This document shows, one piece after another, positions 4,690 to 44,228 of a stretch of 64,000 nt of DNA (position 1 is its first letter; the number at the start of each line of letters is the position of its first letter). The stretch lies in NCBI GenBank assembly GCA_963663035.1, contig OY760074.1, positions 214,358 through 278,357 on the forward strand, given 5' to 3'. Under the pieces are notes generated by a model. It was not told the origin of the DNA. It saw nothing but the letters and a program-made list of their open reading frames with translations, and searched no databases. The position numbers were made by a program, and so were the translations under genes. The DNA is from Acidobacteriota bacterium. GTDB lineage: Bacteria > Acidobacteriota > UBA6911 > RPQK01 > JADFOI01.

Positions 4690-4907
4690 CCTAGCGCCCG
4701 CATTATGCTAAAATTTCTGCTACAGTGTCGCAATCATCCGCGCTGACGGCGTTGTGCGACCCGCAAAGCGGGTACCCCTTGCGCTCCTCGACGTACTGCA
4801 AGAGTACGTCTGCGGGGCGCGACCCGCGAGCGGGTACCCCTCACACGCCTTGTCATCGCGGCGCTTGCGCCACTTCGCTACGAAAACCTATGCATAATGC
4901 GGGCTAG
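4690..4907. mobile_element. MITE family A, copy 1 (218 bp, contains an extra internal hairpin module)
   Basis: Terminal IRs CTAGCGCCCGCATTATGCTAAAA ... TATGCATAATGCGGGCTAG. Internal palindromes: GACCCGCAAAGCGGGTAC, GACGTACTGCAAGAGTACGTC and GGCGCTTGCGCC. No ORF. Related copies at 6292, 34401 and 44075. Confidence 0.7.
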
Positions 4908-4913
4908 AGCATA

Positions 4914-5237
4914 GTGATGTTCAAGTTGTTATCGACCTGGCAGAGGACCTTTCTGCTTGCTGTGCTCTGCTGCCTTGTGAGCTTGGCGGTTGTCGTCATC
5001 GCTCTGAACCTGGCTGTCTGGGGAGCGCCCTTACCCATCTTCCTTTTCTTACTTGGGTGGTTGCTGACTGTGGGGCTACCGACCAGTCTTTCAGTTGTTC
5101 TGGTGATGAGCTTCTGGCGGGGGGGTTCCGTGGAGATGTTCGCGCTTGTTGTGGTGAGCCTGGCGCTGGCTCTCACTCTCGTTTGTCTGGTGCTCCTGAG
5201 ACAGATCATCATGCCTGGGTGGAGAACAAAGCCGTGA
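4914..5237 (+). CDS. Small hydrophobic membrane protein (hypothetical)
   Basis: 107 aa, almost entirely hydrophobic. Its TGA stop (5235-5237) overlaps the GTG start (5234) of the downstream gene, suggesting translational coupling. Confidence 0.4.
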   Translation: MMFKLLSTWQRTFLLAVLCCLVSLAVVVIALNLAVWGAPLPIFLFLLGWLLTVGLPTSLSVVLVMSFWRGGSVEMFALVVVSLALALTLVCLVLLRQIIMPGWRTKP

Positions 5238-6295
5238 AGTTGAACCGGAGGAGTTTCCTGGCCTCACTGCTTTGTGCTTCCTCCTGTGCCAATTCTGGCG
5301 GGCTCCATGAAGACCAACCCAGCGAGCCTGTCTTGGACTTCCATGTCCATCTCCTGGGCGTTGGTGACGAAGGGAGTGGATGTTTTTTATCGGAAAGACA
5401 ACGGACTCACTCCTTGAGCAGTGTTACGCCCACCAACTATTCCCTTCTTCTCGGTCTCCTGGGGTTGGAGCAAAACGGGCACATGGACCGCGACTATGTA
5501 GCGGTACTGGTGGACCAGCTGCAAAGGTCCTCGCTGGAGAAGGCGCTGCTGGTGGGGCAAGACGGCCGTTATGACCAGGATGGGATGTTTGATCGAGCCG
5601 CCACCAATTTCTACGTGCCCAACGAGTATCTCCTCAGAGTTGCCAGGGAGCACCCGGATCTGTTCGTTCCCTGTGTTTCGATCAATCCCAAACGACGTGA
5701 TGCCTTGGAGGAGCTGGAACGTTGTGCCGAGGGGGGAGCTCGAGTTCTGAAGATCCATCCACCAACCCAGGATGTGGATCCCGGCCAGGACCGGTTTCGA
5801 CCCTTTTACCGGCGCTTGGCGGAGTTGGACATCCTGCTCATGGTGCACACCGGGGCCGAACACGGTTCTCCCATAGTGGGGGATGACTACAGTGATCCGC
5901 AGCGGCTGGTGCCGGCACTGCAGGAGGGCTGTACGGTGATTGCCGCTCATGCGGGGATGGGTACTTTTCTGGACTCGGTCGATTTCTTTCCTGCTCTTGT
6001 TGAGCTGATCCAGGACTATCCGAGGCTTTATTGCGACTCGTCGGTGCTGGCAGCAACATCCTATTGGCGATCGCTTCCCCGCATCCTGGAGCAAGACCTG
6101 GTGATGGAGAGGCTCATCCATGGGAGTGATTTCCCTTTCCCTTCCAATGCCCTGGCCTTCTGGAATCGACTTCCTCCCATGGATCTGTTGAGGCTCAGCA
6201 GTGAACCCAACCTTTTAGAGCGAGACTTCCGCCTCAAGCTGGCTCTGGGATTACCGGCAGAGGTGTTCGAGCGCGGCGCACGTCTGCTGGGCTAG
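5234..6295 (+). CDS. Amidohydrolase-2 family (TIM-barrel metal-dependent hydrolase), probable lipoprotein
   Basis: GGAGA RBS 8 nt upstream of GTG 5234. N-terminus VKLNRRSFLASLLCASSC gives a signal peptide with lipobox. Body has HVHLLGV...HTGAEHG...AAHAGMG. The 412-aa ORF from 5057 is regarded as an N-terminal over-extension. Confidence 0.6.
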   Translation: MKLNRRSFLASLLCASSCANSGGLHEDQPSEPVLDFHVHLLGVGDEGSGCFLSERQRTHSLSSVTPTNYSLLLGLLGLEQNGHMDRDYVAVLVDQLQRSSLEKALLVGQDGRYDQDGMFDRAATNFYVPNEYLLRVAREHPDLFVPCVSINPKRRDALEELERCAEGGARVLKIHPPTQDVDPGQDRFRPFYRRLAELDILLMVHTGAEHGSPIVGDDYSDPQRLVPALQEGCTVIAAHAGMGTFLDSVDFFPALVELIQDYPRLYCDSSVLAATSYWRSLPRILEQDLVMERLIHGSDFPFPSNALAFWNRLPPMDLLRLSSEPNLLERDFRLKLALGLPAEVFERGARLLG

Positions 6296-6445
6296 CCCGC
6301 ATTATGCATAAATTTTCTGCTACAGTGTCGCAATCATCCGCGCTGACGGCGTTATGCGACCCGCAAGCGGGTACCCCTCACACGCCTTGTCATCGCGGCG
6401 CTTGCGCCACTTCGCTACGAAAACCTATGCATATTGCTGGGCTAG
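6292..6445. mobile_element. MITE family A, copy 2 (154 bp including both CTAG flanks)
   Basis: CTAGCCCGCATTATGCATAAATTTTCTGCTACAGTGTCGC ... CTATGCATATTGCTGGGCTAG. The left CTAG supplies the TAG stop of the amidohydrolase (6293-6295). The right CTAG supplies the TAG stop of the minus-strand acyltransferase (6442-6444). Confidence 0.7.
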
Positions 6446-9399
6446 GGTTGTAAGAAGGTGAAGCCGGATCGCTTCAGGGTTTCCACAAACTCGCTCTCTG
6501 AAGCGACGAAAGCACGGCCCGTGTCCGTGTCCAGGTCGAGAAATTGAACCAAATCAAAAGGGGAGTTACCCGCTTCGAGCCCATCCGCATGAACCTGTAC
6601 GAATGTGTTCACGGGCAAGGTCTGCCGGCCCATAATGGTGGTCAGCGGGAGCGTGAGCATGCCGTCATAGGCGCGGTAAACGAGTTCCGAGCAGACCAGG
6701 AGGTCGGTGGAAAAGAAGTCGAACTCGAAATCATAGGGTTTGCCATGATGGGAGAAGGCACGGGCAATGGCCTCGCGACGTTGAGCGTTGGTCAACCGCG
6801 GTCGGAGTACTGCCACCGCATCCGACTCGCCCACCGCGTGTTCCAGACTGGTGAAGATCACTCCCTCACTCATGGCCTCGATGACGGCATGGGAATGGCC
6901 GGCTGCATCCCGTCTGAGAAAGTCATCCCAATGGGGTGTTACCCGGAGATCATCGGCTACACCCATCTCCTCGAGGGTGTCCGCGTCACCCAAATAAAAG
7001 GCGGCGTGGGGCCAGAATCCCGGTAAGAAGGCGTTGGACAAAAACCAGTTTCTCCGCGCTATGATGATGTCGCCCGGTTGAAGCAGCTGCCGCAGTTCCT
7101 CCACCTGCTCGGGACCAATCAGTCCCTGGTGGCGAGGGCGATCTCTGAGACGGAAGTCGCCGATCCACGTTGAAACCAGTGCCTGGGCCCGATAAAGCGG
7201 GTCCCTCACAGAAAGACGCACTTCCTGGAGGGCCAGCTCCAGCCTGCGGGCACCGATTTGATCGACAGCCTGCTCAATGGCGGGCCCTGCTCCAAGGGCT
7301 GCTTCTACGAGTTCGTCCCAGGGTGGACCGCTTCCGTAAGCACCCGTCTTCTGCAGGCGGTCAAAAGTTTGGGCAGCCTCCTGAAGCTGAGAGACCAACT
7401 CCGCACTGGAGAGGCTGGCCAGCAGGCGGTCGTAGGTGCCTTCTTGAATCTCCCAGGCCGAGTCCCCCTCGTTGAGTTTGCGCTGGGTCTGTTCGTCGTC
7501 GCCGAAGGTATCGACGATGGCGGCTGCCTTTTCCAGAAGTGTGGCCGCACTTGCATAGGCAAGCAAAAAGGCACGCCCCTCCATCTGGCCTTCCATTGAA
7601 TCATCGTGCGCTGCCCGGTAGGTCCAGACAGTCCGCAGGAGTGCCGTGCGCAGGTTGAGGTAAGTCAAGAGTAGCTGGTGGATGGCATCGTCATCCTCCT
7701 GGCTATAGAAGCTGCCTTCTCCCCTCGAGAACGATTCACGCAGATTGTGCATGCCCTCTTCCAAGCGATCCAGTTCGGCGATGGCAGCGGCCGTACCGCG
7801 GCCATCGGATTCAAGCCTGGCAGTGACCAGGACAGGATCCTGATTGCGCAGTTCGTACCAGAGCGAGGGAGCCTGGGAAAGATCCTCCACCCCACGATCG
7901 CGCAGCTGGGCCACAAAAAAACCGAGCAGAATCAGTAACACAGCCAGCAGTACAGCGAAGGCCGTGCGCAGGGGTAGAGGCCGACGAGGAGGAAGGCCCG
8001 ACCATCCCAGCACTTCCACCCGGTATCGATCGCGCATATGGTCCATGCGCAGGAGAAGATCACTCTGGGCCTGAGCCACCCGGGTGACGGCACCGAGCTT
8101 CATCCAAGAACTCACACGTCCTTCCAGATGAGAGAATAGCTTCCAGACGCGGAGGATATAAAAGCGGGCAAAGAGTCCGGTGGGGATCAGTAAGAGGGTG
8201 AAGGCAATGGTTGCGGCAACAGAGGAGTAAAGAGACAGCAACCAAATCTCGAGCCCGTAAAACAGGGGGAATGCAATTATACCCACCAGGATATGGAAGA
8301 ATGAAAGCGTCGGGGGGTGTTTCGTTTTGGACAGGATCTTATTGCTGACTCCCCTGGTCAGGTAGTAGGGAATGGCTCCGGTGAGAAAGCCGAACAGTGC
8401 TGGTATGGCGCCCAGGAGAACTTCGGCGGCCACCTGAAGCGGGGCCAACGGCCCGGGCAGCAGGCGGGCAGCTTCCTCCAGGAGCCGGCGGTCCACCCCG
8501 GCCTTCTCACGGAGTCTCTCGTAACGCTCCAGTTTGCGTTCAATCTCTGTGACAGCATCCGGGTCTGCTTGGGCGTAATGGTTGAGGCAGTCTGCCGTCC
8601 TGTAAAGGAGCTCCCCCCGAAGGCCCTTTCGGTCCACCCCAGCCAGTCCAGTTTTTCGTACGCGCTGGAGATAGACATCTACCAGCCGCTCCACCAAGGG
8701 CAGGTTTTCTTGTGATTCCACTTGGAAGGCAAGCTTCTTGAGGGCAGAGTCGATCCCTCCGGTCAATTCCCGGATGGCCTGGCGCGGATTCTCGGCGTGG
8801 AGCGGGGCGAGATCCGCGATCTTGAGCGGTTCTCCAAAGCGGACGAACGCATCGGCCCGGAATTTTCGGCGGGGCTCGAACTGAAGTCCGACCGGGACAA
8901 TCCGAAGACCCAGGGTAAAGTCGGTAGCCGACTCCGCCTTCAGAGCGATGCGTGCCGCCCCCGTCTTGATGGGTACCACCTGGGGATCGTCCTGACTGAT
9001 GCCCTCGGGAAAGATGGCGGTGGCAAGCTTCTGGTCAAGGAGTTCGGCGTAGCGGTCCAGGGCCTCCAGATTGCGTCTCCCACCCCGCGGATCGTCCTGG
9101 GCGCGCACCAGTGGAATGGCCCCGAAGGCCTCCAAAACGGTTCCCAGAGGACCGTAAAAGAGTGTGTGCTTTGCCCCAAAGTGCAGGGGCCGAGCAATCA
9201 GATGAACCAAAATGGCAGGGTCGAGCAGGGAGTTGGGGTGATTGGCCACCAGAAGGACTGCGCCTTTTCTGGGGATTAATTCCGCCCCCTGCACCTGGAT
9301 GGAACGGTAGTACACCCGAAAGACGAGTCGGAGGAGTGCCTTAATGAGGAAACGGACCCACTGCTGGAAGGAGGTCATGATGAACCCAATGTGTACCAA
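6442..9399 (-). CDS. Multidomain membrane protein: N-terminal PlsC-type lysophospholipid acyltransferase, central TM region, C-terminal YiiX-like permuted papain-fold domain
   Basis: 985 aa. N-terminus has ANHPNSLLD (HxxxxD acyltransferase motif) and FPEG. The C-terminus GDIIIARRNWFLSNAFLPGFWPHAAFYLG...CSELVYRAYDG resembles the YiiX/DUF830 permuted NlpC-P60-like fold. Confidence 0.55.
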   Translation of the reverse strand: MVHIGFIMTSFQQWVRFLIKALLRLVFRVYYRSIQVQGAELIPRKGAVLLVANHPNSLLDPAILVHLIARPLHFGAKHTLFYGPLGTVLEAFGAIPLVRAQDDPRGGRRNLEALDRYAELLDQKLATAIFPEGISQDDPQVVPIKTGAARIALKAESATDFTLGLRIVPVGLQFEPRRKFRADAFVRFGEPLKIADLAPLHAENPRQAIRELTGGIDSALKKLAFQVESQENLPLVERLVDVYLQRVRKTGLAGVDRKGLRGELLYRTADCLNHYAQADPDAVTEIERKLERYERLREKAGVDRRLLEEAARLLPGPLAPLQVAAEVLLGAIPALFGFLTGAIPYYLTRGVSNKILSKTKHPPTLSFFHILVGIIAFPLFYGLEIWLLSLYSSVAATIAFTLLLIPTGLFARFYILRVWKLFSHLEGRVSSWMKLGAVTRVAQAQSDLLLRMDHMRDRYRVEVLGWSGLPPRRPLPLRTAFAVLLAVLLILLGFFVAQLRDRGVEDLSQAPSLWYELRNQDPVLVTARLESDGRGTAAAIAELDRLEEGMHNLRESFSRGEGSFYSQEDDDAIHQLLLTYLNLRTALLRTVWTYRAAHDDSMEGQMEGRAFLLAYASAATLLEKAAAIVDTFGDDEQTQRKLNEGDSAWEIQEGTYDRLLASLSSAELVSQLQEAAQTFDRLQKTGAYGSGPPWDELVEAALGAGPAIEQAVDQIGARRLELALQEVRLSVRDPLYRAQALVSTWIGDFRLRDRPRHQGLIGPEQVEELRQLLQPGDIIIARRNWFLSNAFLPGFWPHAAFYLGDADTLEEMGVADDLRVTPHWDDFLRRDAAGHSHAVIEAMSEGVIFTSLEHAVGESDAVAVLRPRLTNAQRREAIARAFSHHGKPYDFEFDFFSTDLLVCSELVYRAYDGMLTLPLTTIMGRQTLPVNTFVQVHADGLEAGNSPFDLVQFLDLDTDTGRAFVASESEFVETLKRSGFTFLQP

Positions 9400-9465
9400 G
9401 GAGTATAGACGAGTGGGGAAGAAGAAGAAAGAGGGGACAGTTGACTCTCTTCCCTCGTTTGCGTG

Positions 9466-9804
9466 TTAACCAGCGATGATTTCGTTTAGACCTTCGACCA
9501 GTTGATCCAACTCCTCGGGTGGCAGGCGTCCGAGCCTTTTTCCCAGGCGCTTAACCGAAAGCGTACGAACCTGGCTGATCTTGACCCAGGAGGGCGTCTT
9601 CAGGCCACTGAGTCTCACCTGTAATGTGAGCGGAAAACCGGCTTGCTGCGGTTTGTTGGTGAGGGCCATCGCAATGACAGTGCCTGACCTCTCGTTAAAA
9701 ATCTCTTGGCTTATGACCACAACCGGGCGATGGCCCGCCTGCTCATTTCCTTGGACCGGATTAAGGTCCGCCCAGAGAATGTCTCCTCTTAGTACTCGGG
9801 CCAT
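9466..9804 (-). CDS. mazF: MazF/PemK-family type II toxin endoribonuclease
   Basis: 112 aa. [24 protein letters not shown] is the canonical PemK/MazF N-terminus. Confidence 0.8.
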
Positions 9805-10031: not shown

Positions 10032-10038
10032 GGCTATG

Positions 10039-10057
10039 GTATGACAGTTTATCATAC
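10039..10057. promoter_or_regulatory. Palindrome GTATGA-N7-TCATAC at the antitoxin 5-prime end, candidate TA operator
   Basis: Perfect 6-bp inverted repeat directly upstream of (or overlapping, if the longer start is used) the antitoxin start. RHH antitoxins autoregulate via such operators. Confidence 0.3.
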
Positions 10058-14025: not shown

Positions 14026-14042
14026 AAGAAAGTGAGAGGAAG

Positions 14043-18490: not shown

Positions 18491-19963
18491 ATGAACGTAC
18501 TAACCAGGTTTCAAACATTTGGAAAATCTCGACGGGGCGGCATCCTGGCCTTACTGCTCGGTATCCTGGCCACAGTCCTCTGGGTGCAGGTTCGAGCGGG
18601 AGCCTTTCCGGGATACCCTCACGTGGGTGGTGTCGACCCTCAGCCGTCTGTCCACCCCAAAACGGGTGTCCAGTTCCAGGCGTCCCTCTCCCAGCCGATG
18701 ATCGTCCAGGGAAGTGATGGCACGGTCTACTTGGACCTGTCTGTCGTTACTCCCAAGATCTCGCGGCCGGACATCTTGAGGATGCCCACCGACACCATCG
18801 TGGTCCTGGATCGCAGCGGTTCCATGGCAGAGGACAACAAGTGGATGTTTGCCACCCAAGCTGTCCACTCGCTCCTGGACCGCCTCATGTCCGGAGACCG
18901 CATCGCTTTGGTGACCTTCGACACCCACGCCCGTGTCCAATCGCAATTGGTCTCGGCCAACGAAACGAACATCCAGCGCTTTAGAGATATCGTGAACAGC
19001 CTGAGTCCCGGAGCTTCGACCAATCTGGGCGACGGACTCCTGGCCGCCGAAAGGATGGCAGCAGCTTTACGCGTATCAGAGCGGGGGCGACGAGTCATCC
19101 TTCTGTCCGATGGTCAGGCCAATGTTGGTATCTCCCACCCGCTGGAACTCAATGCCATTGCCCGACGGATTGCGGATCAGGGCAGCATTCTTTCCACTGT
19201 TGGCATGGGACTGGGATTCAACGAGAACCTCCTGGCTTCCCTGGCTGACAACGGCATGGGCAGCTTCAGTTATCTCGAGCATCTGGAATCGCTGGGTACG
19301 ATCCTGGCCCAGGAGCTGGATGACTCCCGCGACGTCTACGCCGATAGTTCCCAGATGCGAATTCATCTCCCCATGGGTGTGGAGCTTGTGGAGGCCTCCG
19401 GTTATCCCTTTGTTCTGGAGGGAAGAACGGCCGTTATCCGGACCGGTCAGCTTTTCCAGGATAGTAACAAAAGCTTTATGGCCACTCTCCGGGTTGCCAA
19501 TCACGTGCCCGCTGAGTACACGCTGGGCAACATCGACTTGAGCTACCGGGTGGACGGTCATTCCTACAAACAGGAAGTCGAATCGTCAGGATTGACCATC
19601 GCCTGCGTTCCCGCAGAGCGAGAAGAGGAAGCGGTGGCTTCGATCGACAAGGATGTCTATCGGGACGCCTGGATCAGGAACAACCTGGGCTCGGTCATGA
19701 GAGAAGTGGGTGACTTCGTTCGCAAAGGAGACCGGCAACAAGCCGAGGAGCTGCTGGAAGACTATAAAGAACGCCTGGAGGAAGCAGATCAGGCCGTGCC
19801 CGGTATAAAGAAGGAGGCAACTGCTCAACTGGACGAGCTGAAAGCCAGAGTCGACGATGCCTTCCAGGGCCCCGCCCAGAGAGCCAAGCAGAACCGTGCC
19901 GCCAAGGCCTTCCTGGGTGAGAGTCAGGAGCTTCAAAGAGAAGTCAACAAGAACAACAACTAG
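18491..19963 (+). CDS. von Willebrand factor type A (VWA) domain membrane protein
   Basis: 490 aa. N-terminal TM. MIDAS motif DRSGSM ... SDG ... Coiled-coil/charged C-terminus. The stop TAG is the last 3 nt of the CTAG that flanks IS copy 1. Confidence 0.75.
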   Translation: MNVLTRFQTFGKSRRGGILALLLGILATVLWVQVRAGAFPGYPHVGGVDPQPSVHPKTGVQFQASLSQPMIVQGSDGTVYLDLSVVTPKISRPDILRMPTDTIVVLDRSGSMAEDNKWMFATQAVHSLLDRLMSGDRIALVTFDTHARVQSQLVSANETNIQRFRDIVNSLSPGASTNLGDGLLAAERMAAALRVSERGRRVILLSDGQANVGISHPLELNAIARRIADQGSILSTVGMGLGFNENLLASLADNGMGSFSYLEHLESLGTILAQELDDSRDVYADSSQMRIHLPMGVELVEASGYPFVLEGRTAVIRTGQLFQDSNKSFMATLRVANHVPAEYTLGNIDLSYRVDGHSYKQEVESSGLTIACVPAEREEEAVASIDKDVYRDAWIRNNLGSVMREVGDFVRKGDRQQAEELLEDYKERLEEADQAVPGIKKEATAQLDELKARVDDAFQGPAQRAKQNRAAKAFLGESQELQREVNKNNN

Positions 19964-21602
19964 CCCGGATTATTCATAAATTCTGAAGAAGGGGTCTGAT
20001 CGAGGGCACAAAAAGATGCCGTACCTATTTGATATAAAAGGGGTTATGAAACAACTCCAAACCAAAAAGGTACGGCCCAGCGATGCATCAGTCTGCCAGA
20101 TCAACTTGCCATCTCACCCTGACAGAAAAGTGGTGGCTCGATTCGATGGAGGCCGGCTCTCCTCCGATGCCGGGCTGCTGTGTCTGTACGCCCTGGATCA
20201 ACAGCACGGACTGACGGCTGGCTTTGCCTCCTGCCTGAAGGACGCTCGAGATAGCCGCTACGTCCGCCACCAGATTCGCGAACTGCTCACCCAGCGCAGC
20301 TTTCAGATCGTGGCCGGCTATGAGGACTGCAACGATGCCGACAGCTTGCGCTCGGATCCCATCTTCAAGACCGTGTGTGATCGGCTGCCGGAAAGCGATC
20401 CGGATCTGGCTTCTCAACCCACGCTGTCGCGACTGGAGAACTCGGTGGACTCGAAGGATCTCACTCGCCTGGGACAGTGGCTGCTGGAGACCTACTTGAA
20501 GCACCGCAAGAAGAGCCGGCCCGAGAAGATCATCCTGGACATCGACAGCACGGATGACGTCACGCATGGGCAGCAGGAGTTCAGCTTTTACCACGGCTAT
20601 TATCGCGAGCACATGTATCATCCGCTGCTGCTATTCGATGGCGAGACGGGCGATCTGGTATGTGCGCTACTGCGGCCCGGCAACCAGGGGGCGGCCGCCC
20701 ACGCGGTGGCGGTTCTCAAACGGGTGGTGGCCCGGATGCGCCAGGTTCTGGGATCCGATGTTCCGATCGAAGTGCGAGCCGACAGTGGCTTTGCGACGCC
20801 GGCACTGTACGAGTTCTGTGAGGAGGAAAAACTGCAGTATGTGGTGGGCTTTGCCCGCAACTCCCGGCTGGCGGCCACCGTCGAGCCCTTGGTTGAGCAG
20901 GTGCAAGCAGACTATGACGACTCAGGAGAAAAGCAACGCCAGTTCACCGAGCTCGTCTATCAGGCCGACAGTTGGGACCGGGAGCGGCGCATGGTGGCCA
21001 AGGTGGAAGTGAGCGAGCGCGGGTTCAACCGTCGCTTTGTGGTCACCAACCGCCAGGATCTCACGGCCGGGCAGCTGTATGACCACTACATCGGACGGGG
21101 CCAGTGCGAGAACTTCGTGAAAGCTTTCAAAAAAGATCTGGCCATGGATCGCTTGAGCTGCCACCGTTTCCTGGCCAACCAGTTCCGACTCTTCATCCAC
21201 GCCCTGGCCTATGTCTTAATCCTGCGCCTGCGGGATTACCTGTGCGGGACTCCCTGGCACAACCTGGAGATTGAGACGCTCCGCCGCCGCCTGTTCAAAA
21301 TCGGTGCCCGGGTTCGGGAAACTTCTCGTCGCATCTGGGTGCACCTGGCATCGTCTTATCCCGAACAAAAGCTCTTCGCATTACTGATGCACCGTCTGTG
21401 TCCCACCTGACGGTCCCCTGACTCCCTGCGCCAACACAGATATACAGCCCCCTGCGGGCCGAGCTGTTTCCGGAAGGGGCTCTCGCTTCATCTCTATTCG
21501 GCTCAACAAGCTTGGACGCCTTGTAATCGCACCTGAACACACTCTCAGCCCTGAACTTCCGCAGAAAATCGACACTCACCCCAAACTTATGAATAATTGC
21601 GG
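19964..21602 (+). mobile_element. Insertion sequence, IS4-superfamily (best fit IS1380 family), copy 1, 1639 bp, flanked by CTAG/CTAG
   Basis: Imperfect terminal IRs CCCGGATTATTCATAAATT ... AACTTATGAATAATTGCGG (start with CC). Single 464-aa DDE transposase ORF. CTAG at 19960-19963 and 21603-21606. Identical to copy 2 apart from one synonymous SNP seen at 20027. Confidence 0.8.
20016..21410 (+). CDS. DDE transposase (IS4/IS1380-like)
   Basis: 464 aa. DSTD...RADSGF...Y(2)R(3)E(3)K (YIGRGQCENFVKAFK) DDE_Tnp_1-type signature. N-terminal PTLSRLEN motif. Confidence 0.85.
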   Translation: MPYLFDIKGVMKQLQTKKVRPSDASVCQINLPSHPDRKVVARFDGGRLSSDAGLLCLYALDQQHGLTAGFASCLKDARDSRYVRHQIRELLTQRSFQIVAGYEDCNDADSLRSDPIFKTVCDRLPESDPDLASQPTLSRLENSVDSKDLTRLGQWLLETYLKHRKKSRPEKIILDIDSTDDVTHGQQEFSFYHGYYREHMYHPLLLFDGETGDLVCALLRPGNQGAAAHAVAVLKRVVARMRQVLGSDVPIEVRADSGFATPALYEFCEEEKLQYVVGFARNSRLAATVEPLVEQVQADYDDSGEKQRQFTELVYQADSWDRERRMVAKVEVSERGFNRRFVVTNRQDLTAGQLYDHYIGRGQCENFVKAFKKDLAMDRLSCHRFLANQFRLFIHALAYVLILRLRDYLCGTPWHNLEIETLRRRLFKIGARVRETSRRIWVHLASSYPEQKLFALLMHRLCPT

Positions 21603-21616
21603 CTAGGAGGAACATA

Positions 21617-22204
21617 ATGGCTATTACAAATCGTATAAGACGACTTTTTCATGCCGATGTACACGCTGTTTTGGACATCATCGAGGAGCCCGAAGCAATT
21701 CTGAAGCAGGCGATTCGAGAGATGCAGGAGGCTCTTGACTTGAAGAGAGCCCGGCTGGCCAGGGACCAAAGGAACCTGGCCTCGCTGAAAGGGGCCGAGA
21801 CCTATTCCAACGAGCAGCTGGCAAAGGTTCAGAAAGATGTGAAGCTTTGCTTGAGGCAAGGCTCTGAGGACCTGGCCCGCAAGACGGTGGGGCGTAAGCT
21901 TGCCCTGGAGAAACATGTGGCAGTTGTAAAGCAGCGCATCTCGGCCGGGGAGAAACTCCACCAGAAGAACAAGCAGGAGATTGATCTTCAGCAGGGCCAA
22001 CTCGAGTCGATAGTCGAAAAGGCCAAACTGTTTGTGCCGACGGCAGCGGAGGACTCAGTCTTCTCTGTTGCCGAGTCCATTCTCACCAGCGCTGAGCGGG
22101 GTGCCGGTCGAGGCTATCCCGGCGGCATGCAGGTGAGTGAGGAGGAAATCGAACTGGAATGGATACGCATTCGCGACGGTCTCGACAAGGGAGGTGCCTC
22201 ATGA
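21617..22204 (+). CDS. pspA: PspA/IM30-family protein
   Basis: 195 aa. N-terminus RIRRLFHADVHAVLDIIEEPEAILKQAIREMQEAL matches the PspA/Vipp1 N-terminal helix, with a coiled-coil body. The RBS GGAGG begins with the last G of the IS right-flank CTAG. Confidence 0.8.
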   Translation: MAITNRIRRLFHADVHAVLDIIEEPEAILKQAIREMQEALDLKRARLARDQRNLASLKGAETYSNEQLAKVQKDVKLCLRQGSEDLARKTVGRKLALEKHVAVVKQRISAGEKLHQKNKQEIDLQQGQLESIVEKAKLFVPTAAEDSVFSVAESILTSAERGAGRGYPGGMQVSEEEIELEWIRIRDGLDKGGAS

Positions 22205-25303: not shown

Positions 25304-25627
25304 ATGGTGACCCTCGAAGACTTTCAGAAATTAGAGATCCGGATCGGCAAGGTCCTCTCCGTAGAGAAAGTTGCTGGCGCGGATAAGCTGCTGAAATTCA
25401 TCTTTGACTTCGGCAGCGAACAAAGGCAAATCATCGCTGGAATGGCGACTTTCTTCCCGGAACCCTCGAGCTTGGAGGGAAAAGAAATGCCGGTCTTGCT
25501 CAATATTGAACCCAGGACCTTCAGGGGTGAGGTGAGCCACGGAATGATTATTGCAGCAGACGTTGATGGACATCCGGTTCTGCTGCATCCGGAAAGAGAA
25601 GTGGAACCGGGTAGTAGGGTTCTGTAG
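25304..25627 (+). CDS. tRNA-binding domain protein (CsaA/EMAP-II-like)
   Basis: 107 aa. LEIRIGKVLSVEKVAGADKLLKFIFDFG is the OB-fold tRNA-binding domain signature. Confidence 0.75.
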   Translation: MVTLEDFQKLEIRIGKVLSVEKVAGADKLLKFIFDFGSEQRQIIAGMATFFPEPSSLEGKEMPVLLNIEPRTFRGEVSHGMIIAADVDGHPVLLHPEREVEPGSRVL

Positions 25628-25653
25628 CCGGGACTATGCATAATCCCGGCTAG
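25624..25653. repeat. Solo IR-IR palindrome of MITE family A (minimal element or excision footprint)
   Basis: GTAGCCGGGACTATGCATAATCCCGGCTAG consists of two abutted MITE-A terminal repeats. The left flank GTAG contains the TAG stop of the tRNA-binding gene. The right flank is CTAG. Confidence 0.5.
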
Positions 25654-26279: not shown

Positions 26280-26293
26280 CGAGAAAGGGGGTT

Positions 26294-26494
26294 AACCCGC
26301 ACTTCTCACACCCGCTCTACTGCAGCGGCGCAATGATCCGCCCTGACTTTGTTGCGCGACCCGCAAGCGGGTACCCCTCGCGCGCCAGTCGGAGCCGCAG
26401 GCTTTAGCCTGCGGGCCCGTGGGCTAAAGCCCACGGCTCTGTTTTCCGGTCCTTCCGCCGCTTCGCGACGACCTGGTGTGAGAAATGCGGGTCA
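26294..26494. mobile_element. MITE family B (chimeric)
   Basis: Terminal IRs AACCCGCACTTCTCACACC ... GGTGTGAGAAATGCGGGTCAA (19 bp, 1 mismatch). Internally carries the GCGACCCGCAAGCGGGTACCCC module of MITE-A and both REP-A hairpins (GCAGGCTTTAGCCTGC, GTGGGCTAAAGCCCAC). Confidence 0.55.
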
Positions 26495-28090
26495 ATAGGG
26501 GGACAGAGCAGACCGTACCCATTTCTTTTGTCCCTTTTTTCCCCGCCAGCGCCAGCCTAGAATGCCGGCATACAGAATCAGGGAAACAACTGAGATCCAC
26601 TTCCCGATGCGAAAGCCTGCCGGCGCATACTCGATGCGAAGATGATGATTTCCCGCACCCAGGGGAACGGCTCGCAAGATGTAGTTGGCGGGCAGAAGGT
26701 CGTAATTCTGTTGAACGCTGCCGGGAAGGGCCACTGCTCGCCAGCCCTTGCTGTAGCTGTCCGTAATCAGCAAGATGGCGGGAGCCGGAAGGCGGGCTTC
26801 CACAACCAGATAATCCGTGCCCTCCTCGGTAATGGTGGCGGTACCAGGCCGGTCAGTTTTGACGGGAGCCGGGACAGGAGCAGTTTCCAGAATGACCTGT
26901 TGCCGAGGGTCGAAAGAGGAGTTGCTCATGGTGGCAAAGATGCGGCCGCGCTCCTGAATGAGCACCCAGTCCTGGATCAATTCCAGCCGCGACAGGGGCG
27001 AGGGGATCTCCTCGAAGCCCTGTCTGCCGCCCTCTGAGAAAAATACATAACGACCTCGCAGCATCCCGAAGAGGGGATGGATGCGCGACAGTTCCAGATA
27101 CTGACTAGCGGTCTGAGGGTTCTGGCCCTGGGTAAATGTCATGAACTCGGCATAGCGCTTGAGCACGCCGGGATCATGTCCCCATAGGTCCTGGGCACCT
27201 GTGCTGAGGGCACTGTTCGGGTTGGGGGGCAGTGAAACACGATAATCACCCGGATTGGCTTCGTAGAATTGCTGTATAAGAGGAAGCCGTGTCGTTTCCA
27301 GATCAAAGGTCGGTCTGTTGGCTGTGGCAAAGATAAACATCTCCAAGGCGGCAAGCAACGGTACGAGATACACGGCTCTGGGAGCCACCCGTGTGCGCCG
27401 CAGCAGCAGACTAAAGAGCAGGCATGAAGCGCTGCAAAGGAGCACACCCTTTGCAGTAAACACGCCTGCACCGTTGACAAAGGCTTGGTCTTGATAGCTA
27501 CCCAGTGGCAGATAGGACTCCCCAGTGGCGGCCACCGCTGACATGAGGGATCCCCACGTCCCGCTGAACCCGGAAGCTGCCGAAAGGTATATCCACAGGC
27601 CCACAGCACCCACCGCCAGTCCTGCGAATGACAGTAGCTTTGCCAGACGTTGACGCCAGGGAGGATCGTGCAGGAGATTGTCCAGGCCAATGGCGGAGAG
27701 CATGACGCTGAACATGGCTACCAGAAAAATGAACTTTGAATTGCCCCGAAACATGTCGAATCCCGGTACGGACCTGTAAAGCAGATTGAAGAGGGGTGTG
27801 TAAGTCCCCAGAGCAAGAACCGATAAAATCAGCGTCATGGAGACCGAAGACAGCCGCAGTTTCCGGCTGCCCCGCACAGCTCCCGACACTGCCAGGACAA
27901 AACCAGTCACACCTATGAACAGCGACATCTCCCACAGATACCACCGTCCCCAGTAACTGCTCATGCCGCCGAAGAATCCTGGGACCAGGAGGGTGAGAAA
28001 GTTCTCTGGCGGGAAGGAGAACATGGCCGCAAACGCATAGGATGTTCCGCTGCTGCGTACACTCTCGCCGGCTGCCTCCAGGCCAGCTAG
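26492..28090 (-). pseudogene. YfhO-family membrane protein gene, C-terminal part, split by IS copy 2
   Basis: Polytopic C-terminal region. It continues in frame with the N-terminal part at 29730-30432 if the IS and one CTAG are removed. Confidence 0.6.
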
Positions 28091-29729
28091 CCCGGATTAT
28101 TCATAAATTCTGAAGAAGGGGTCTGATCGAGGGCACAAAAAGATGCCGTACCTCTTTGATATAAAAGGGGTTATGAAACAACTCCAAACCAAAAAGGTAC
28201 GGCCCAGCGATGCATCAGTCTGCCAGATCAACTTGCCATCTCACCCTGACAGAAAAGTGGTGGCTCGATTCGATGGAGGCCGGCTCTCCTCCGATGCCGG
28301 GCTGCTGTGTCTGTACGCCCTGGATCAACAGCACGGACTGACGGCTGGCTTTGCCTCCTGCCTGAAGGACGCTCGAGATAGCCGCTACGTCCGCCACCAG
28401 ATTCGCGAACTGCTCACCCAGCGCAGCTTTCAGATCGTGGCCGGCTATGAGGACTGCAACGATGCCGACAGCTTGCGCTCGGATCCCATCTTCAAGACCG
28501 TGTGTGATCGGCTGCCGGAAAGCGATCCGGATCTGGCTTCTCAACCCACGCTGTCGCGACTGGAGAACTCGGTGGACTCGAAGGATCTCACTCGCCTGGG
28601 ACAGTGGCTGCTGGAGACCTACTTGAAGCACCGCAAGAAGAGCCGGCCCGAGAAGATCATCCTGGACATCGACAGCACGGATGACGTCACGCATGGGCAG
28701 CAGGAGTTCAGCTTTTACCACGGCTATTATCGCGAGCACATGTATCATCCGCTGCTGCTATTCGATGGCGAGACGGGCGATCTGGTATGTGCGCTACTGC
28801 GGCCCGGCAACCAGGGGGCGGCCGCCCACGCGGTGGCGGTTCTCAAACGGGTGGTGGCCCGGATGCGCCAGGTTCTGGGATCCGATGTTCCGATCGAAGT
28901 GCGAGCCGACAGTGGCTTTGCGACGCCGGCACTGTACGAGTTCTGTGAGGAGGAAAAACTGCAGTATGTGGTGGGCTTTGCCCGCAACTCCCGGCTGGCG
29001 GCCACCGTCGAGCCCTTGGTTGAGCAGGTGCAAGCAGACTATGACGACTCAGGAGAAAAGCAACGCCAGTTCACCGAGCTCGTCTATCAGGCCGACAGTT
29101 GGGACCGGGAGCGGCGCATGGTGGCCAAGGTGGAAGTGAGCGAGCGCGGGTTCAACCGTCGCTTTGTGGTCACCAACCGCCAGGATCTCACGGCCGGGCA
29201 GCTGTATGACCACTACATCGGACGGGGCCAGTGCGAGAACTTCGTGAAAGCTTTCAAAAAAGATCTGGCCATGGATCGCTTGAGCTGCCACCGTTTCCTG
29301 GCCAACCAGTTCCGACTCTTCATCCACGCCCTGGCCTATGTCTTAATCCTGCGCCTGCGGGATTACCTGTGCGGGACTCCCTGGCACAACCTGGAGATTG
29401 AGACGCTCCGCCGCCGCCTGTTCAAAATCGGTGCCCGGGTTCGGGAAACTTCTCGTCGCATCTGGGTGCACCTGGCATCGTCTTATCCCGAACAAAAGCT
29501 CTTCGCATTACTGATGCACCGTCTGTGTCCCACCTGACGGTCCCCTGACTCCCTGCGCCAACACAGATATACAGCCCCCTGCGGGCCGAGCTGTTTCCGG
29601 AAGGGGCTCTCGCTTCATCTCTATTCGGCTCAACAAGCTTGGACGCCTTGTAATCGCACCTGAACACACTCTCAGCCCTGAACTTCCGCAGAAAATCGAC
29701 ACTCACCCCAAACTTATGAATAATTGCGG
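28091..29729 (+). mobile_element. Insertion sequence, IS4-superfamily (best fit IS1380 family), copy 2, 1639 bp, flanked by CTAG/CTAG
   Basis: Same IRs and ORFs as copy 1. CTAG at 28087-28090 and 29730-29733. Inserted in the yfhO-like gene. Confidence 0.8.
28143..29537 (+). CDS. DDE transposase (identical to 20016-21410)
   Basis: Protein identical over 464 aa. Confidence 0.85.
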   Translation: MPYLFDIKGVMKQLQTKKVRPSDASVCQINLPSHPDRKVVARFDGGRLSSDAGLLCLYALDQQHGLTAGFASCLKDARDSRYVRHQIRELLTQRSFQIVAGYEDCNDADSLRSDPIFKTVCDRLPESDPDLASQPTLSRLENSVDSKDLTRLGQWLLETYLKHRKKSRPEKIILDIDSTDDVTHGQQEFSFYHGYYREHMYHPLLLFDGETGDLVCALLRPGNQGAAAHAVAVLKRVVARMRQVLGSDVPIEVRADSGFATPALYEFCEEEKLQYVVGFARNSRLAATVEPLVEQVQADYDDSGEKQRQFTELVYQADSWDRERRMVAKVEVSERGFNRRFVVTNRQDLTAGQLYDHYIGRGQCENFVKAFKKDLAMDRLSCHRFLANQFRLFIHALAYVLILRLRDYLCGTPWHNLEIETLRRRLFKIGARVRETSRRIWVHLASSYPEQKLFALLMHRLCPT

Positions 29730-30432
29730 CTAGGGCTGCGGCTCCCACATACATGCTGCCCAATCCCAGCACCAGCCGTGGTCGTTCCCGTGCCCGGATA
29801 AGACGAAGCCCGCTATAGAGCCCGGCGGCGATAGCCGTGTAAAACACATACTGGGGATGGCCGGCAAGAATCTGCATGGTGATGGCAAACATACCCATCA
29901 GACACCAGGTGAAGGAACGTTCTTGGAGCAGGCCATCAATGGCCAGAAAGAGCAGTGGTGCCCATACCATGGCGCAGAGATTGGGGAGGTGCCCGGCAGA
30001 GACATGCAGGAAATAGGGACCGGAGAACATAAAGAGGATGGATGAAAGGAGGCAAGCTGCTGGATGAAGCCCCCGGTGAAAGGTCCAGAGATAGATAAAC
30101 AGCCCGGCCAGGAACACATGCAGCGCAATGCTCACATTAATTGCCTTGGCAAGCGGCAGCACCAGATACACCCAGTTGGGTGGATAGAGCAAGGCGGACT
30201 GAAAGCCTCCAAAGTATGGCATCCCCGAAAAGATGTGCGGATTCCACAGGGCCAGGTTGCCTTGGCCCAGCTGGCTGAAACCAAACTCGCGCCAATAGAC
30301 GAACTGCGAGGACAGGTCGGTGCCCAATTGGGAGAGAATCACCTCTTTCGACGTGAACAGCACATCGACGAACATGAGAAGCGTCAATCCAAAGAGAACC
30401 AGAAGAGCCAGTAGGAAAGTTTTCTCTCGCAT
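29730..30432 (-). pseudogene. YfhO-family membrane protein gene, N-terminal part
   Basis: MREKTFLLALLVLFGL...DLSSQFVYWREFGFSQ...NPHIFSGMPYFGG is the characteristic YfhO N-terminus. The ORF-track extension to 29422 reads into the IS. Confidence 0.6.
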
Positions 30433-34357: not shown

Positions 34358-34400
34358 GCTGAGAATTCCCTTATCTCCACTATTGTCGCACAGTTGCCGT

Positions 34401-34601
34401 ATAGGCGGGATTATGCATAAATTGTCTACTGCAGTGCCGCAATCATCCACGCTGACTGCGTTGTGCTTCCTTGGGCTCCTCGGCGTACTGCATGAGTACG
34501 CCGAGGAGCCCGACCCGCAAGCGGGTACCCCTCGCAGGCCTTGTCATCGCGGCGCCTGCTGCACTTCGTCACGAAAATCTATGCATAACCCCGCCTCCTA
34601 G
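34401..34601. mobile_element. MITE family A, copy 3, inside the glycan locus
   Basis: ATAGGCGGGATTATGCATAAATTGTCTACTGCAGTGCCGC ... ATGCATAACCCCGCCTCCTAG. Carries a 14-bp-stem hairpin CTCCTCGGCGTACTGCATGAGTACGCCGAGGAG. Left flank is a degenerate ATAG. Confidence 0.65.
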
Positions 34602-34613
34602 GCAGGGACCCAA

Positions 34614-34640
34614 GCCGGGATTATGCATAACCCCGGCTAC
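34614..34640. repeat. Second solo IR-IR palindrome of MITE-A, immediately right of copy 3
   Basis: GCCGGGATTATGCATAACCCCGGCTAC. Indicates nested or repeated insertion at this site. Confidence 0.4.
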
Positions 34641-34644
34641 CCTT

Positions 34645-39177: not shown

Positions 39178-39185
39178 GGATTCCC

Positions 39186-40211: not shown

Positions 40212-40320
40212 GCCTCCTGGATAGAATGAGAAATTGGACTCTTGAGTCTTCAGAAGGGACTGATGAGGGACAGTTTGATAGTCACCAATTCATGGTAACA
40301 CGGAACTCGCTTCGTTCGAC

Positions 40321-40346
40321 GAGTGAGTCCGGTCACCGACTCACTC
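40321..40346. terminator. 9-bp-stem hairpin overlapping the thiolase stop codon
   Basis: GAGTGAGTC-CGGTCACC-GACTCACTC. No U-tract. Confidence 0.3.
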
Positions 40347-41549: not shown

Positions 41550-41903
41550 TGTTAATGACCTCCTAGATGCCTTCTTTGAGCAATTTCCTTACAAATGAGA
41601 CAAGCTTTACTTGAAGGCTTCATTCCGGGATTCTGGCAGCGGGTGTTCAGGGAGGTCAAGATCGAGGCCGCACAAGCCCTTCGACCGCAGGCGTTGCCTA
41701 AGGCTACGTCGAGGATCGAAGGGCGCGGAGAACGAAGAGCTTGGCCTTCCTGGACACCCGCGCTAACCCTGAAACACAAGTCGTACCAATATCTTATCAT
41801 TCACGAAAGAGCTACTCCCAGAGCTGCCAGGCGAGTGACCGAAGTTTGGGCAGAAAACGAAGTCATTGTAAGCTGTGGCGAACGAGAGGGAGATTCTTTG
41901 AGC

Positions 41904-44078
41904 ATGATTAGGCGGTATCTTGGTTTAGGCGTCATTCTGTTCAGCTGGTCTGCGTCCTCTGGACTTGCTGCCCAGGACGGTGCGGTGGAAGGCTCCGCAG
42001 AAAAAGTCACCACGGCTCAACGGATCGACACCAAGCTTGTCATCGATGGCGAACTTGACGAACCCGAATGGGATCTTGTGGAACCTATCAGCGATTTTGT
42101 TCAACAGGACCCGAGCCCAGGCGAGGCCATAACCGAGCGAACCGAGGTTCGAATTCTCTACGATGATGAATTTCTCTACTTCGGTATTTACTGCTTCGAT
42201 TCAGAAGGTGAGGAAGGGATTCTTGTCACCAATTTGCAAAGAGATTTTCGTCCCTTGGACGGCGATGTGTTTAGCCTGCTTCTGGATACTTTCGATGACG
42301 ATCGCAACGGATTTCTCTTGAGTACCAACCCCTTCGGAGCCAAACGCGACACCCAGGTCGGAGAGGACGGAAGGATGAGTAATGGGGATTGGGATGGGAT
42401 CTGGCATGTCCAAAGCAAGATCACTGAAAGTGGCTGGCAAGCGGAAATGGCGATCCCCTTTACGACCCTCCGCTTTCGGAATACAGAAGAGCAGGTCTGG
42501 GGTCTGAACCTCCAACGACGCATCCGTCGTAAGAATGAGAGTGCCCACTGGGCTCCTATTCCACGCCAGTACAGAATCAGTCGCATCTCACGAGCCGGAA
42601 GACTGGAGGGTCTCAGCGGGATCCGGCCCGGCCGCAATCTGTATGTCAAGCCCTATATCAGCATGCCGGTCACGCGTCGGCAGGATGACGACGTCGATTT
42701 TCTTCCCGATGCTGGATTGGACCTGAAGTATGGGCTGAGTTCCGAGTTGACCCTGGATTTGACGGCCAACACAGACTTCTCACAGGTGGAAGCCGATGAT
42801 CAGCAGATCAACCTGACTCGATTCAGCCTCTTCTTTCCAGAGAAGCGGGACTTTTTTCTGGAAAATGCCTCAGCCTTCCAGTTTGGCCCGCCAGGTGGTG
42901 GGGGTCTCCTGGGTGGTTTTCGGGACTTGATTCCCTTTTTCAGCCGACGAATTGGACTTTCCCAGGGCAGTCTCGTTCCGATACTGGGAGGAGCCCGCAT
43001 GACGGGGAAGGTCGGGGACTACACTGTGGGTCTCCTTTCCCTGCAGGACGATGATTTCGAGGGGACTCCCTCTACCAACTTCTCGGTGATGCGGGTGCGT
43101 CGAGATGTTCTCAGCAACTCATCGATGGGAGGAATTTTTGTCAACAAACATGAACTGGACGGTGATTCCAATCGCACCTACGGAGCCGATGTCAATTTCA
43201 GCTTCTATAGGTTTCTGGATGTCTCCACTTTCCTACTCAAGACCGACACTCCCGAATTCCAGGACAAGGATCTGGCCGGCTTTTTCAGGGCCGCCTGGAG
43301 AGGCCCGCTGCTGACGGTCCAGGCAGACCATCTCTCCATTCAAGAAAACTTCAACGCGGAAGTAGGCTTTATTCCCCGTAAAGACATCCGGAAAACAACG
43401 GGAACGTTTGGGATACGGCCGAGGCCCCGCGAGCGGATCCCCTGGATTCGTGAATTCGAACCCTCCATCTCCATGACCTATCTTACCGACCAGGAAAACG
43501 TCCTGCAGACGCGAACCATCAACGGTCGCTTCTCAGTCAGGTTTCAAAATGAGGAACTGATCTGGTTTGCTGCCCAGTCGCGGTTTGAGCTCTTGACTGA
43601 AGACTTCGACATCCGGAGCGATCAGATGATTCCCGCAGGAGGCTATCAGTTCAATGAGTACACACTTTCGCTCCAAAGTAATGCTAGCCGTATGTTCAGT
43701 GGGAGCTTCAGAGCGGTCACGGGAGATTTCTGGGACGGTGAGAAGGACTCCTATCGTTTCAGCTTTCGCTTTCAACCCATGCCCCAATTTCGATCAGAGA
43801 TCACCTGGAGCCACGACGATGTCAGGCTGCCCTCAGGGGATTTTGACACCGAGCTGGTCACCACTCGTCTGAACTATAGCTTCAACCCCAGCATGTTTCT
43901 CAATGCCCTGATCCAGTACAACAGCGATCGGAAGGAGCTCCGCAGCAATATTCGTTTCAATTTGATTCACAAGCCACTGAGCGACTTTTTCCTGGTCTAC
44001 AACGAGCGGAGATCTTCAACGGGAGACGTAGCGGAACGAGCACTCATTGCCAAGGTGACCTACGTCATTGGCCTCTAG
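41904..44078 (+). CDS. Secreted CBM9-like/DUF5916-type protein
   Basis: Start MIRRYLGLGVILFSWSASSGLAAQ (signal). LDEPEW...FLYFGIYC resembles carbohydrate-binding family 9-like modules followed by a large beta-rich domain. The upstream in-frame extension to 41595 has no start support. The TAG stop is part of the MITE flank CTAG. Confidence 0.5.
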   Translation: MIRRYLGLGVILFSWSASSGLAAQDGAVEGSAEKVTTAQRIDTKLVIDGELDEPEWDLVEPISDFVQQDPSPGEAITERTEVRILYDDEFLYFGIYCFDSEGEEGILVTNLQRDFRPLDGDVFSLLLDTFDDDRNGFLLSTNPFGAKRDTQVGEDGRMSNGDWDGIWHVQSKITESGWQAEMAIPFTTLRFRNTEEQVWGLNLQRRIRRKNESAHWAPIPRQYRISRISRAGRLEGLSGIRPGRNLYVKPYISMPVTRRQDDDVDFLPDAGLDLKYGLSSELTLDLTANTDFSQVEADDQQINLTRFSLFFPEKRDFFLENASAFQFGPPGGGGLLGGFRDLIPFFSRRIGLSQGSLVPILGGARMTGKVGDYTVGLLSLQDDDFEGTPSTNFSVMRVRRDVLSNSSMGGIFVNKHELDGDSNRTYGADVNFSFYRFLDVSTFLLKTDTPEFQDKDLAGFFRAAWRGPLLTVQADHLSIQENFNAEVGFIPRKDIRKTTGTFGIRPRPRERIPWIREFEPSISMTYLTDQENVLQTRTINGRFSVRFQNEELIWFAAQSRFELLTEDFDIRSDQMIPAGGYQFNEYTLSLQSNASRMFSGSFRAVTGDFWDGEKDSYRFSFRFQPMPQFRSEITWSHDDVRLPSGDFDTELVTTRLNYSFNPSMFLNALIQYNSDRKELRSNIRFNLIHKPLSDFFLVYNERRSSTGDVAERALIAKVTYVIGL

Positions 44079-44228
44079 CCGGGATTATGCATAAATTTTC
44101 TACTGCAGTGCCGCAATCATCCACGCTGACTGCGTTGTGCGACCCGCAAGCGGGTACCCCTTCGCACGCCTTGTCATCGCGGCGCCTGCGGCACTTCGTC
44201 ACGAAAACCTATGCATAATCCCGGCTAG
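44075..44228. mobile_element. MITE family A, copy 4 (154 bp including CTAG flanks)
   Basis: CTAGCCGGGATTATGCATAAATTTTCTACTGCAGTGCCGC ... CTATGCATAATCCCGGCTAG. The left CTAG overlaps the TAG stop of the upstream gene. Confidence 0.7.

Follow-up and report, generated by a model that had tools for sequence, protein, structure and literature searches.

Known IS1380 elements and small mobile repeats

Insertion sequences (ISs) of the IS1380 family (e.g., IS1380 and ISEcp1) are 1.5–2 kb long, have terminal repeats that start with CC and duplicate 4–5 bp of their target. Another kind of mobile repeat, paired with an IS, is represented by Correia/CREE, RUP, ERIC, Nezha and Chunjie: non-coding elements of less than 300 bp that have inverted repeats and a short target duplication, reach high copy numbers, fold back on themselves, lie at gene ends and contain an interior unrelated to their IS. 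Here we describe four elements of this kind in a 64,000-nt stretch of an Acidobacteriota genome (assembly GCA_963663035.1, contig OY760074.1, positions 214,358 to 278,357; hereafter the window, whose own coordinates are used throughout). They are very probably MITEs (miniature transposable elements with inverted repeats) that carry the ends of an IS1380-family group and have spread through Acidobacteriota. The family is new, although its kind is already well known. It differs from the repeats named above in having an IS1380 partner and a palindrome-like YTAR target (Y, C or T; R, A or G), in regenerating stop codons, and in an internal module that changes in place between strains. In the literature searched, which did not cover ISfinder, no paper connects IS1380 with a CTAG/YTAR target or with MITEs derived from it.

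The window also contains an IS that fits the IS1380 family by its match to the NCBIfam profile NF033539, its length of 1639 bp, its CC-initial repeats and a 4-bp duplication. Unlike the family at large, the subgroup to which it belongs keeps a 19-nt terminus, CCCGGATTAT(T/G)CATAAATT, across transposases that are 40–100% identical, and targets YTAR, the resident IS almost exclusively in the form CTAG. The same YTAR/CTAG target and a 4-bp duplication are known from IS5 (IS5 group), which however has a different type of transposase and different terminal repeats. REP, BIME and REPIN sequences resemble the present elements in being short, xTAG-headed, intergenic palindromes of high copy number, but the present elements have IS1380-type terminal repeats and a direct 4-bp duplication. 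PiggyBac shares CC-initial repeats and the duplication of a 4-bp palindromic target (TTAA there; CTAG, TTAA or generally YTAR here), and IS1380 transposases have been used as a prokaryotic outgroup of piggyBac (PMC10813416).

A MITE family with IS1380-type ends

Four elements are found in the window, as the first-pass annotation had reported; the first of them starts at 4691.

4691–4907, + strand: MITE copy 1, long form, CTAG on both sides, degenerate left end CTAG-CG-CCCGC...
6292–6445, + strand: MITE copy 2, short form, stop codons at both flanks
34401–34601, + strand: MITE copy 3, with an extra hairpin module and decayed flanks (left ATAG, right CTC+CTAG)
44075–44228, + strand: MITE copy 4, of the short form, CTAG perfect at both flanks and including a stop codon on the left

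The copies are 154–217 bp long and can be aligned end to end, an alignment that also confirms the shared termini and the conserved hairpin core. The common left end is CC(C/G)G(C/G)ATTATGCATAAATT and the common right end (A/G)AAA(C/T)CTATGCATAA(T/C)(G/C)C(G/C)GG, together forming terminal inverted repeats of 19–22 nt (CC(C/G)G(G/C)AyTATGCATAAATT). Internally, the copies share the box GCAATCATCCrCGCTGAC followed by the hairpin GACCCGCAAGCGGGTACCCC, and an inner second stem, GTGyCGC/GCGrCAC. The interior folds back on itself in a nested arrangement that includes small hairpins, and folding as single strands far exceeds that of shuffled sequences (z of -7.9 and -8.5). Copy 1 has lost one base in the GCATAA of its left end, despite which CTAG stands at both sides; its extra hairpin module is flanked by two 22-nt direct repeats, GCGACCCGCrAGCGGGTACCCCT. 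The module of copy 3 forms an 18-bp stem, not one of 14 bp as first described. Clean ends directly bordered by CTAG on both sides are limited to two copies, at 6292 (with one extra G) and 44075 (perfect).

The core of the MITE ends, ATTATGCATAA, occurs 16 times in the window with at most one mismatch, against 0.4 expected from shuffles. CTAG itself is scarce, with 45 sites compared with 241 expected from base composition or 77 from a Markov estimate, and 12 of the 45 are flanks of MITEs or ISs. The elements carry no transposase gene and are too short for one, and beyond their ends and one subterminal match of 14/15 positions their interior has no recognisable IS origin. Their small size, lack of a transposase, inverted repeats, dispersed copies and IS-shared ends agree with the non-autonomous nature proposed at the outset. 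Rfam gave no match to the elements at its gathering threshold, nor did a relaxed cutoff of E = 1 bring one. Terminator-like sites are no more numerous in the copies than in shuffles, the one weak stem lying where copy 1 meets its left flank; T runs of the terminator type are absent, and promoter-like sites are not in excess, copy 1 containing one such match (9/12).

The family extends well beyond the window. When the species genomes of GTDB were scanned for a left-end pattern in which the G at position 11 was fixed, 89 stretches were listed, so that the family occupies at least 89 loci in at least 12 metagenome-assembled genomes (MAGs). Ten of the MAGs among these matches are labelled Acidobacteriota or Acidobacteria or have no label, and two more carry the labels "Proteobacteria" and "Deltaproteobacteria". 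Among the matches listed, 71 complete non-redundant copies could be delimited, 87–466 bp long and mostly 170–215 bp; figures for outside copies below refer to this set. They fall into subfamilies marked by joint changes in both arms, at positions 3, 5 and 20 of the terminal repeat as well as in the inner stem; at the three terminal positions none of 500 shuffles reaches the observed covariation. Pairwise identity has a median of 86%, and the best non-orthologous pairs reach 97–98%, which indicates an old family with some fairly recent activity. Exact-protein look-ups with three genes of the window gave no match, owing to uncertain start codons or single differences.

The resident IS and its sister elements

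Whereas a single resident IS had been described, the window contains two copies, one of which interrupts a gene.

19960–21606, + strand: IS copy 1 with its CTAG flanks (IS proper 19964–21602, 1639 bp)
20016–21410, + strand: transposase gene of IS copy 1, 464 aa, matching the IS1380 family profile
28087–29733, + strand: IS copy 2 with its CTAG flanks (IS proper 28091–29729; transposase gene 28143–29537)
26492–30432, - strand: gene for a membrane protein, split by IS copy 2, its frame restored by removal of the IS plus 4 bp

The two copies differ by one mismatch (99.9% identity), and each is flanked by CTAG/CTAG. The 464-aa transposase matches NF033539 (IS1380 family) at 399.7 bits (cutoff 180; E = 1.2e-119) and Pfam PF13701 at 505.9 bits; the only other NCBIfam models that match it (IS4, IS1634 and IS701) all score at or below 27.8 bits. 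A sequence search against solved structures gave no match for the transposase. In a comparison based on its predicted structure (mean predicted local distance difference test score, pLDDT, 79.8), the best match is Tn5 transposase (E = 4e-9, template modelling [TM] score 0.45), followed by piggyBac 6x67 (E = 8.7e-5, TM 0.31), and piggyBat (9c0f) is matched as well. The Tn5 (IS4-family) transposase thus fits the predicted structure better than piggyBac does (TM 0.45 vs 0.31).

An exact look-up of the transposase found ten more copies of the IS on long metagenome contigs, 12 in total with those of the window. In a sister strain whose sequence is 99.98% identical to the window over 6.4 kb (locus L101), a further IS lies in the right CTAG of the MITE at 6292, where the left junction alone was observed. 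This strain-polymorphic insertion indicates that the IS is active now and re-uses CTAGs created by MITEs. Another IS copy adjoins a 309-aa gene (L004:4606–5535) with a faint match to Y1_Tnp, the HUH tyrosine transposases, which could be a RAYT-like gene serving another repeat family.

The ends of the MITEs align with those of the resident IS (CCCGG... and ...GCGG) only in part. On the left, 17 of 19 positions agree with the end of the IS (which has ATTATTCATAA where the MITEs have ATTATGCATAA), in register from the first base. Near the right ends there is a subterminal match of 14/15 positions (ACGCCTTGTmATCGC). However, the right end of the IS itself, CCGCAATTATTCATAAGTT, has diverged, with about 13 of 22 positions equal to the MITE right end when compared by eye, and position 11 of the terminal repeat is T in both ends of the IS and G in the MITE copies at 6292, 34401 and 44075 (at 4691 this base has been lost in the degenerate end). 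The 71 outside copies cannot test this T/G contrast, as the GTDB pattern required G at that position.

Ends of exactly the MITE type are found in a sister IS. P0005, the nearest multi-copy relative (transposase 73% identical), is a 1644-bp element bounded as CTAG|CCCGGATTATGCATAAAT...ATGCATAATCCGGG|CTAG, its ends also being written as CCCGGATTATGCATAAATC...TTTATGCATAATCCGGG. A second sister, P0023 (transposase 67% identical), agrees with the MITEs over its first 14–15 nt and is also flanked by CTAG. A metagenome scan with the 19-nt, T-type left end of the resident IS gave at least 120 stretches; an earlier pattern that placed IS interior beside the left end had no matches. Among the matches listed, elements of 1655–1677 bp have the same 19-nt left end but transposases that are only 40–46% identical, and MITE-sized elements with the exact 19-nt end CCCGGATTATTCATAAATT have at least ten unrelated interiors (JGI metagenome loci L106–L224). 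A terminus shared by such divergent transposases and so many interiors points to a deep and widespread IS1380 subgroup that has repeatedly spawned MITEs. The same loci also contain elements of 1240–1879 bp (interior TTAGCCACGAAGACAC...) that showed no transposase match.

Judged from these termini, the MITEs of the window form a G-type, acidobacterial branch of the subgroup, and we infer that they are driven by a sister IS with G-type ends rather than by the resident IS, which is probably a cousin of the driver and not the driver itself. An IS1380-group transposase would bind the shared ends and join them to a YTAR target with a 4-bp stagger, CTAG presumably being the form of YTAR used in this GC-rich genome, and repair would then leave the tetranucleotide at both sides. 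The reaction would be a DDE cut-and-paste, probably through a hairpin intermediate such as Tn5 and piggyBac both use.

The first-pass annotation had instead assigned mobilisation in trans to the 464-aa transposase. That this enzyme moves the window MITEs now seems unlikely. The IS and the MITEs do share the same 64 kb, the 17/19 match of their left ends and their CTAG flanks, and the IS is clearly active, with at least 12 copies at 99.9% identity or more and the polymorphic insertion beside the MITE at 6292. Yet where the MITE end is intact, as in three of the window's four copies, it has G in place of the T of both IS ends, and the window contains no T-type MITE; the right end of the resident IS is far from that of the MITEs, whereas those of the sister IS are identical to them. 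In addition, the MITE copies are much older than those of the resident IS (median identity 86% vs 99.9%), and their insertions are invariant between strains at the three sites compared. Cross-mobilisation of the MITEs by the T-type resident IS is nevertheless possible.

Target site and duplication

Flanking sequences suggest that the target is YTAR, mostly CTAG. Among 15 IS copies, 14 are flanked by CTAG/CTAG and one by CTAA/CTAA; the latter is one of the 12 resident-type copies and lies inside a Na/sulfate-symporter gene (locus L001), while all three sister-IS copies have CTAG/CTAG. The left flanks of the 120 T-type matches listed include CTAG 24 times, TTAA 23 times, TTAG 20 times and CTAA 13 times. 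That all insertions are at CTAG, as first proposed, therefore holds for the clean copies of the window, but CTAG stands on both sides of only 13 of the 71 outside copies, and the target is wider.

Since CTAG is a palindrome, the clean copies fit three models equally: a 4-bp duplication, a duplication of TA, or an insertion at CT^AG. Non-palindromic flanks in direct orientation favour the first. Of 37 non-redundant T-type elements of MITE size among the matches listed, 14 have identical direct 4-mers, and eight of these 14 are non-palindromic (three TTAG, three CTAA, one ATAG and one GTAG); there is one inverted pair. Within the window-type family itself, CTAA/CTAA (L032) and CTGG/CTGG (L099) occur. 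Removal of the IS plus 4 bp restores 779 open codons at window copy 2 and 504 at L001, and both genes stay broken when the IS is removed with 0, 2, 3 or 5 bp. A 4-bp direct duplication, which the first description had inferred from CTAG, is thus supported by the non-palindromic repeats, and the gain of 4 bp by the restored reading frames. Restoration had been reported for a yfhO gene; the restored frame stands, but the YfhO match of the interrupted gene (26492–30432) falls below threshold, at 27.2 bits against a Pfam cutoff of 28.5, and covers the C-terminal 60 residues only. For a sister IS in a sigma-70 gene (L102/L103), the frame was not restored at any offset tried, on low-coverage long-read contigs with discordant gene calls.

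The flanks of the 71 outside copies decay outward. On the left, the main bases are C at -4 (0.46, with T at 0.35), T at -3 (0.82), A at -2 (0.90) and G at -1 (0.89); on the right, C at +1 (0.93), T at +2 (0.90), A at +3 (0.69) and G at +4 (0.59). Deviations form a nested series that begins at the outermost base (p about 0.015 for either side). Such a pattern might be expected if CTAG belonged partly or wholly to the element, either through duplication of TA next to G...C tips or through insertion at CT^AG with no duplication. Positions -4 and +1 are indeed strongly discordant, -1 and +1 covary as an inverted pair (64 of 71 copies, compared with 58.9 in shuffles), and in an orthologous pair of loci, filled in L072 and empty in L077, the T found at -4 is the ancestral base, whereas C stands at +1. 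Restoration of reading frames cannot separate the models, because an identical empty site and an identical gain of 4 bp follow from each of them. This reading is nonetheless improbable in view of the direct TTAG, ATAG, GTAG and CTAA repeats on elements with the same ends and of only one inverted pair, of CTAA/CTAA around an IS copy inside a gene, of CTAA/CTAA and CTGG/CTGG within the MITE family, and of the CC-initial ends and 4–5 bp duplications described for IS1380 elements.

Several observations weigh against MITEs driven by a sister IS and flanked by a 4-bp duplication. Among the outside copies, TTAG...CTAG occurs eight times and TTAG...TTAG never, and T is present at -4 in 25 copies compared with three at +1 (p = 3.5e-6), a discrepancy not foreseen by a simple model of 4-bp duplication and later neutral decay. 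In the genome of the window, no IS with G-type ends was observed, and IS1380 homologues number 0 among the 89 GTDB loci listed, although such absence is to be expected of MAGs built from short reads. No MITE copy yielded an empty site exact to the base, and among strains at least 99.9% identical there is no MITE insertion polymorphism at sites 4691, 6292 and 44075, so that mobility has to be deduced from copy number, flanks and ends. Comparison of L072 with L077 gives an exact left junction and a diverged right side. Other orthologous comparisons (L066/L059/L065 and L056/L055) were set aside, as they lack base-exact junctions and their intergenic DNA is too diverged or rearranged.

The outward decay may have several causes. 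Deamination may be faster at the frayed base of an extruded hairpin, CTAG may be selected against where the stem tolerates change, or template switching may act as a correction within the palindrome. In one pair of orthologous MITEs (L059:4837–5036 and L065), the central hairpin ACCCGC-AA-GCGGGT is inverted, its loop changing from AA to TT, which is the expected product of template switching within a palindrome. A further and rather doubtful idea is that the decay, in which the inner flank bases remain CTAG-like and the outer ones seem to come from the target, is a trace left by piggyBac-like chemistry in an IS family of bacteria. The excised element would then bear 4-nt overhangs from its old flanks, which would anneal to an imperfect YTAR target, and the mismatched outer bases would be trimmed and refilled from the target. 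If true, excision would be seamless and restore a single YTAR. Selection on stop codons was rejected as the cause, the decay persisting in copies without stop-codon flanks, and flank variants show no clear association with subfamily except for a mild excess of TTAG in one cluster.

YTAR contains TAG or TAA, and many tolerated insertions therefore fall on stop codons; the duplication regenerates the stop codon, so the gene stays intact. Among the outside copies, the stop codon of a long open reading frame (ORF) forms the left flank in 12 of 71 and the right flank in 8 of 71. In the window, this applies to site 6292, whose left CTAG includes the TAG of the + strand gene ending at 6295 and whose right CTAG includes the stop codon of the convergent - strand gene ending at 6442, and to site 44075, whose left CTAG includes the stop codon of the DUF5916 gene lying upstream. 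It also applies to IS copy 1 at 19960, which sits between the stop codon of 18491–19963 and the ribosome-binding site of a gene starting at 21617 (pre-insertion junction AACTAGGAGGAACATAATG; the duplication keeps both signals), and apparently to a palindrome at 25624, where the ORF was read by eye. For the orthologous loci L072 and L077, the upstream gene has its native stop codon in the left TAG.

That the elements are instead REP- or REPIN-like host hairpins, retained for a role such as stabilising mRNA 3' ends or moved by a RAYT (tyrosine) transposase, with an incidental likeness to IS1380, is very improbable: strong hairpins with covarying arms, identities of up to 97–98% at non-orthologous sites in different species, the many copies just after stop codons, 22-nt solo palindromes preceded by xTAG and the faint Y1_Tnp-match gene near one IS copy would all suit it, but the MITE ends share 15–19 identical nt with the ends of three IS1380-family elements that were sampled, related elements have direct 4-bp duplications of a kind that HUH/RAYT elements do not make, and the copies lack an Rfam match, a terminator-like T run and an excess of promoter-like sites. 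The first-pass annotation had named a REP class without IS-like ends as the case that would speak against it, and the ends equal those of IS1380 elements.

Long and short forms of the internal module

The long form of the MITE equals the short form plus a unit of 62–64 nt, made up of a hairpin and, after it, another copy of the 22-nt repeat GCGACCCGCAAGCGGGTACCCCT. Both forms occur at the same site at two positions of the window, compared with loci (L100, L101, L225 and L226) that are at least 99.9% identical to it.

Site 6292: short form in the window and L100, long form in L101
Site 44075: short form in the window, long form (216 bp) in the sister assemblies L225 and L226

The presence of both forms at one site in near-identical sequences means that the module comes and goes without leaving its site, for which slippage between the direct repeats is the simplest route. 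The two forms are thus not lineages that transpose separately. Repeat collapse during assembly is another possible source of the short form, and with the short form at both sites the window may represent either a third strain or assembly or a collapsed repeat.

Related pieces and other repeats in the window

Besides the complete copies, the window contains fused ends, an IS fragment and a second MITE family, none of which the first-pass annotation had listed.

25624–25653, no strand assigned: solo palindrome GTAG|CCGGGACTATGCATAATCCCGG|CTAG, two terminal repeats fused at an ATGCAT centre
34611–34640, no strand assigned: second solo palindrome, CCGGGATTATGCATAACCCCGG, with a 22-nt core at 34615–34636, two ends fused at ATGCAT
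52674–52785, no strand assigned: degenerate end-to-end palindrome (52674–52705) and IS fragment
26292–26494, + strand: second-family MITE (element 26296–26490) with flanks TTAA and TCAA

The first solo palindrome has a 22-nt core at 25628–25649, and its left TAG apparently ends the upstream ORF, as read by eye; the core of the second lies 13 nt downstream of MITE copy 3. At 52743–52785, 37 nt beyond the degenerate palindrome, a stretch of 43 nt exactly matches IS bases 20196–20238, and the whole of 52674–52785 is probably an IS remnant. It lies in the 3' end of a - strand ORF (52684–53334) and seems to supply its C-terminus.

The terminal repeat of the second MITE family, CCCGCAyTTCTCACACC, has the same first 8 nt as that of the first family, whereas the subterminal repeats differ; the internal core of the copy at 26296–26490 is as in the first family. 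About ten further complete copies are present among the GTDB loci listed, mostly with yTAG-type flanks. A separate hairpin repeat, CAGTCrGAGCCGCAGGCTTTAGCCTGCGGGCC, occurs at 26382–26423, where it is nested within the second-family element, and at 57461–57502, 61686–61727 and 62899–62940.

A third repeat family, with the terminal repeat GCGGGTGTTCAGGGAGGTCAAG, is represented at 41636–41764 and in loci L083, L060 and L044. The copy in the window falls within the program-listed ORF 41595–44078; the corresponding gene in sister assemblies has only 697–724 aa, which probably puts its real start downstream of the repeat. Window positions 41559–41762 were considered as the empty site of L083 and rejected, since they hold a copy of the third repeat family and are not orthologous. 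A fourth repeat, of about 250 bp, occurs at L057:1397–1690 and at more than ten other GTDB loci with 88–93% identity among copies; it adjoins a MITE in L057 and is absent from the orthologous locus L043.

Significance

The biology of the IS1380 family has been little studied outside ISEcp1, and the elements described here define a subgroup recognised by its conserved 19-nt terminus, its YTAR/CTAG target and its numerous MITE derivatives. A target that contains a stop codon, which is then regenerated, allows spread through gene-dense genomes without killing genes, and may help to explain why the CTAG sites of the window are so frequently occupied. For annotation, the elements create false long ORFs and may mislead the calling of gene starts in Acidobacteriota MAGs. 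The 62–64 nt module can serve as a strain marker and is also a possible source of assembly errors.

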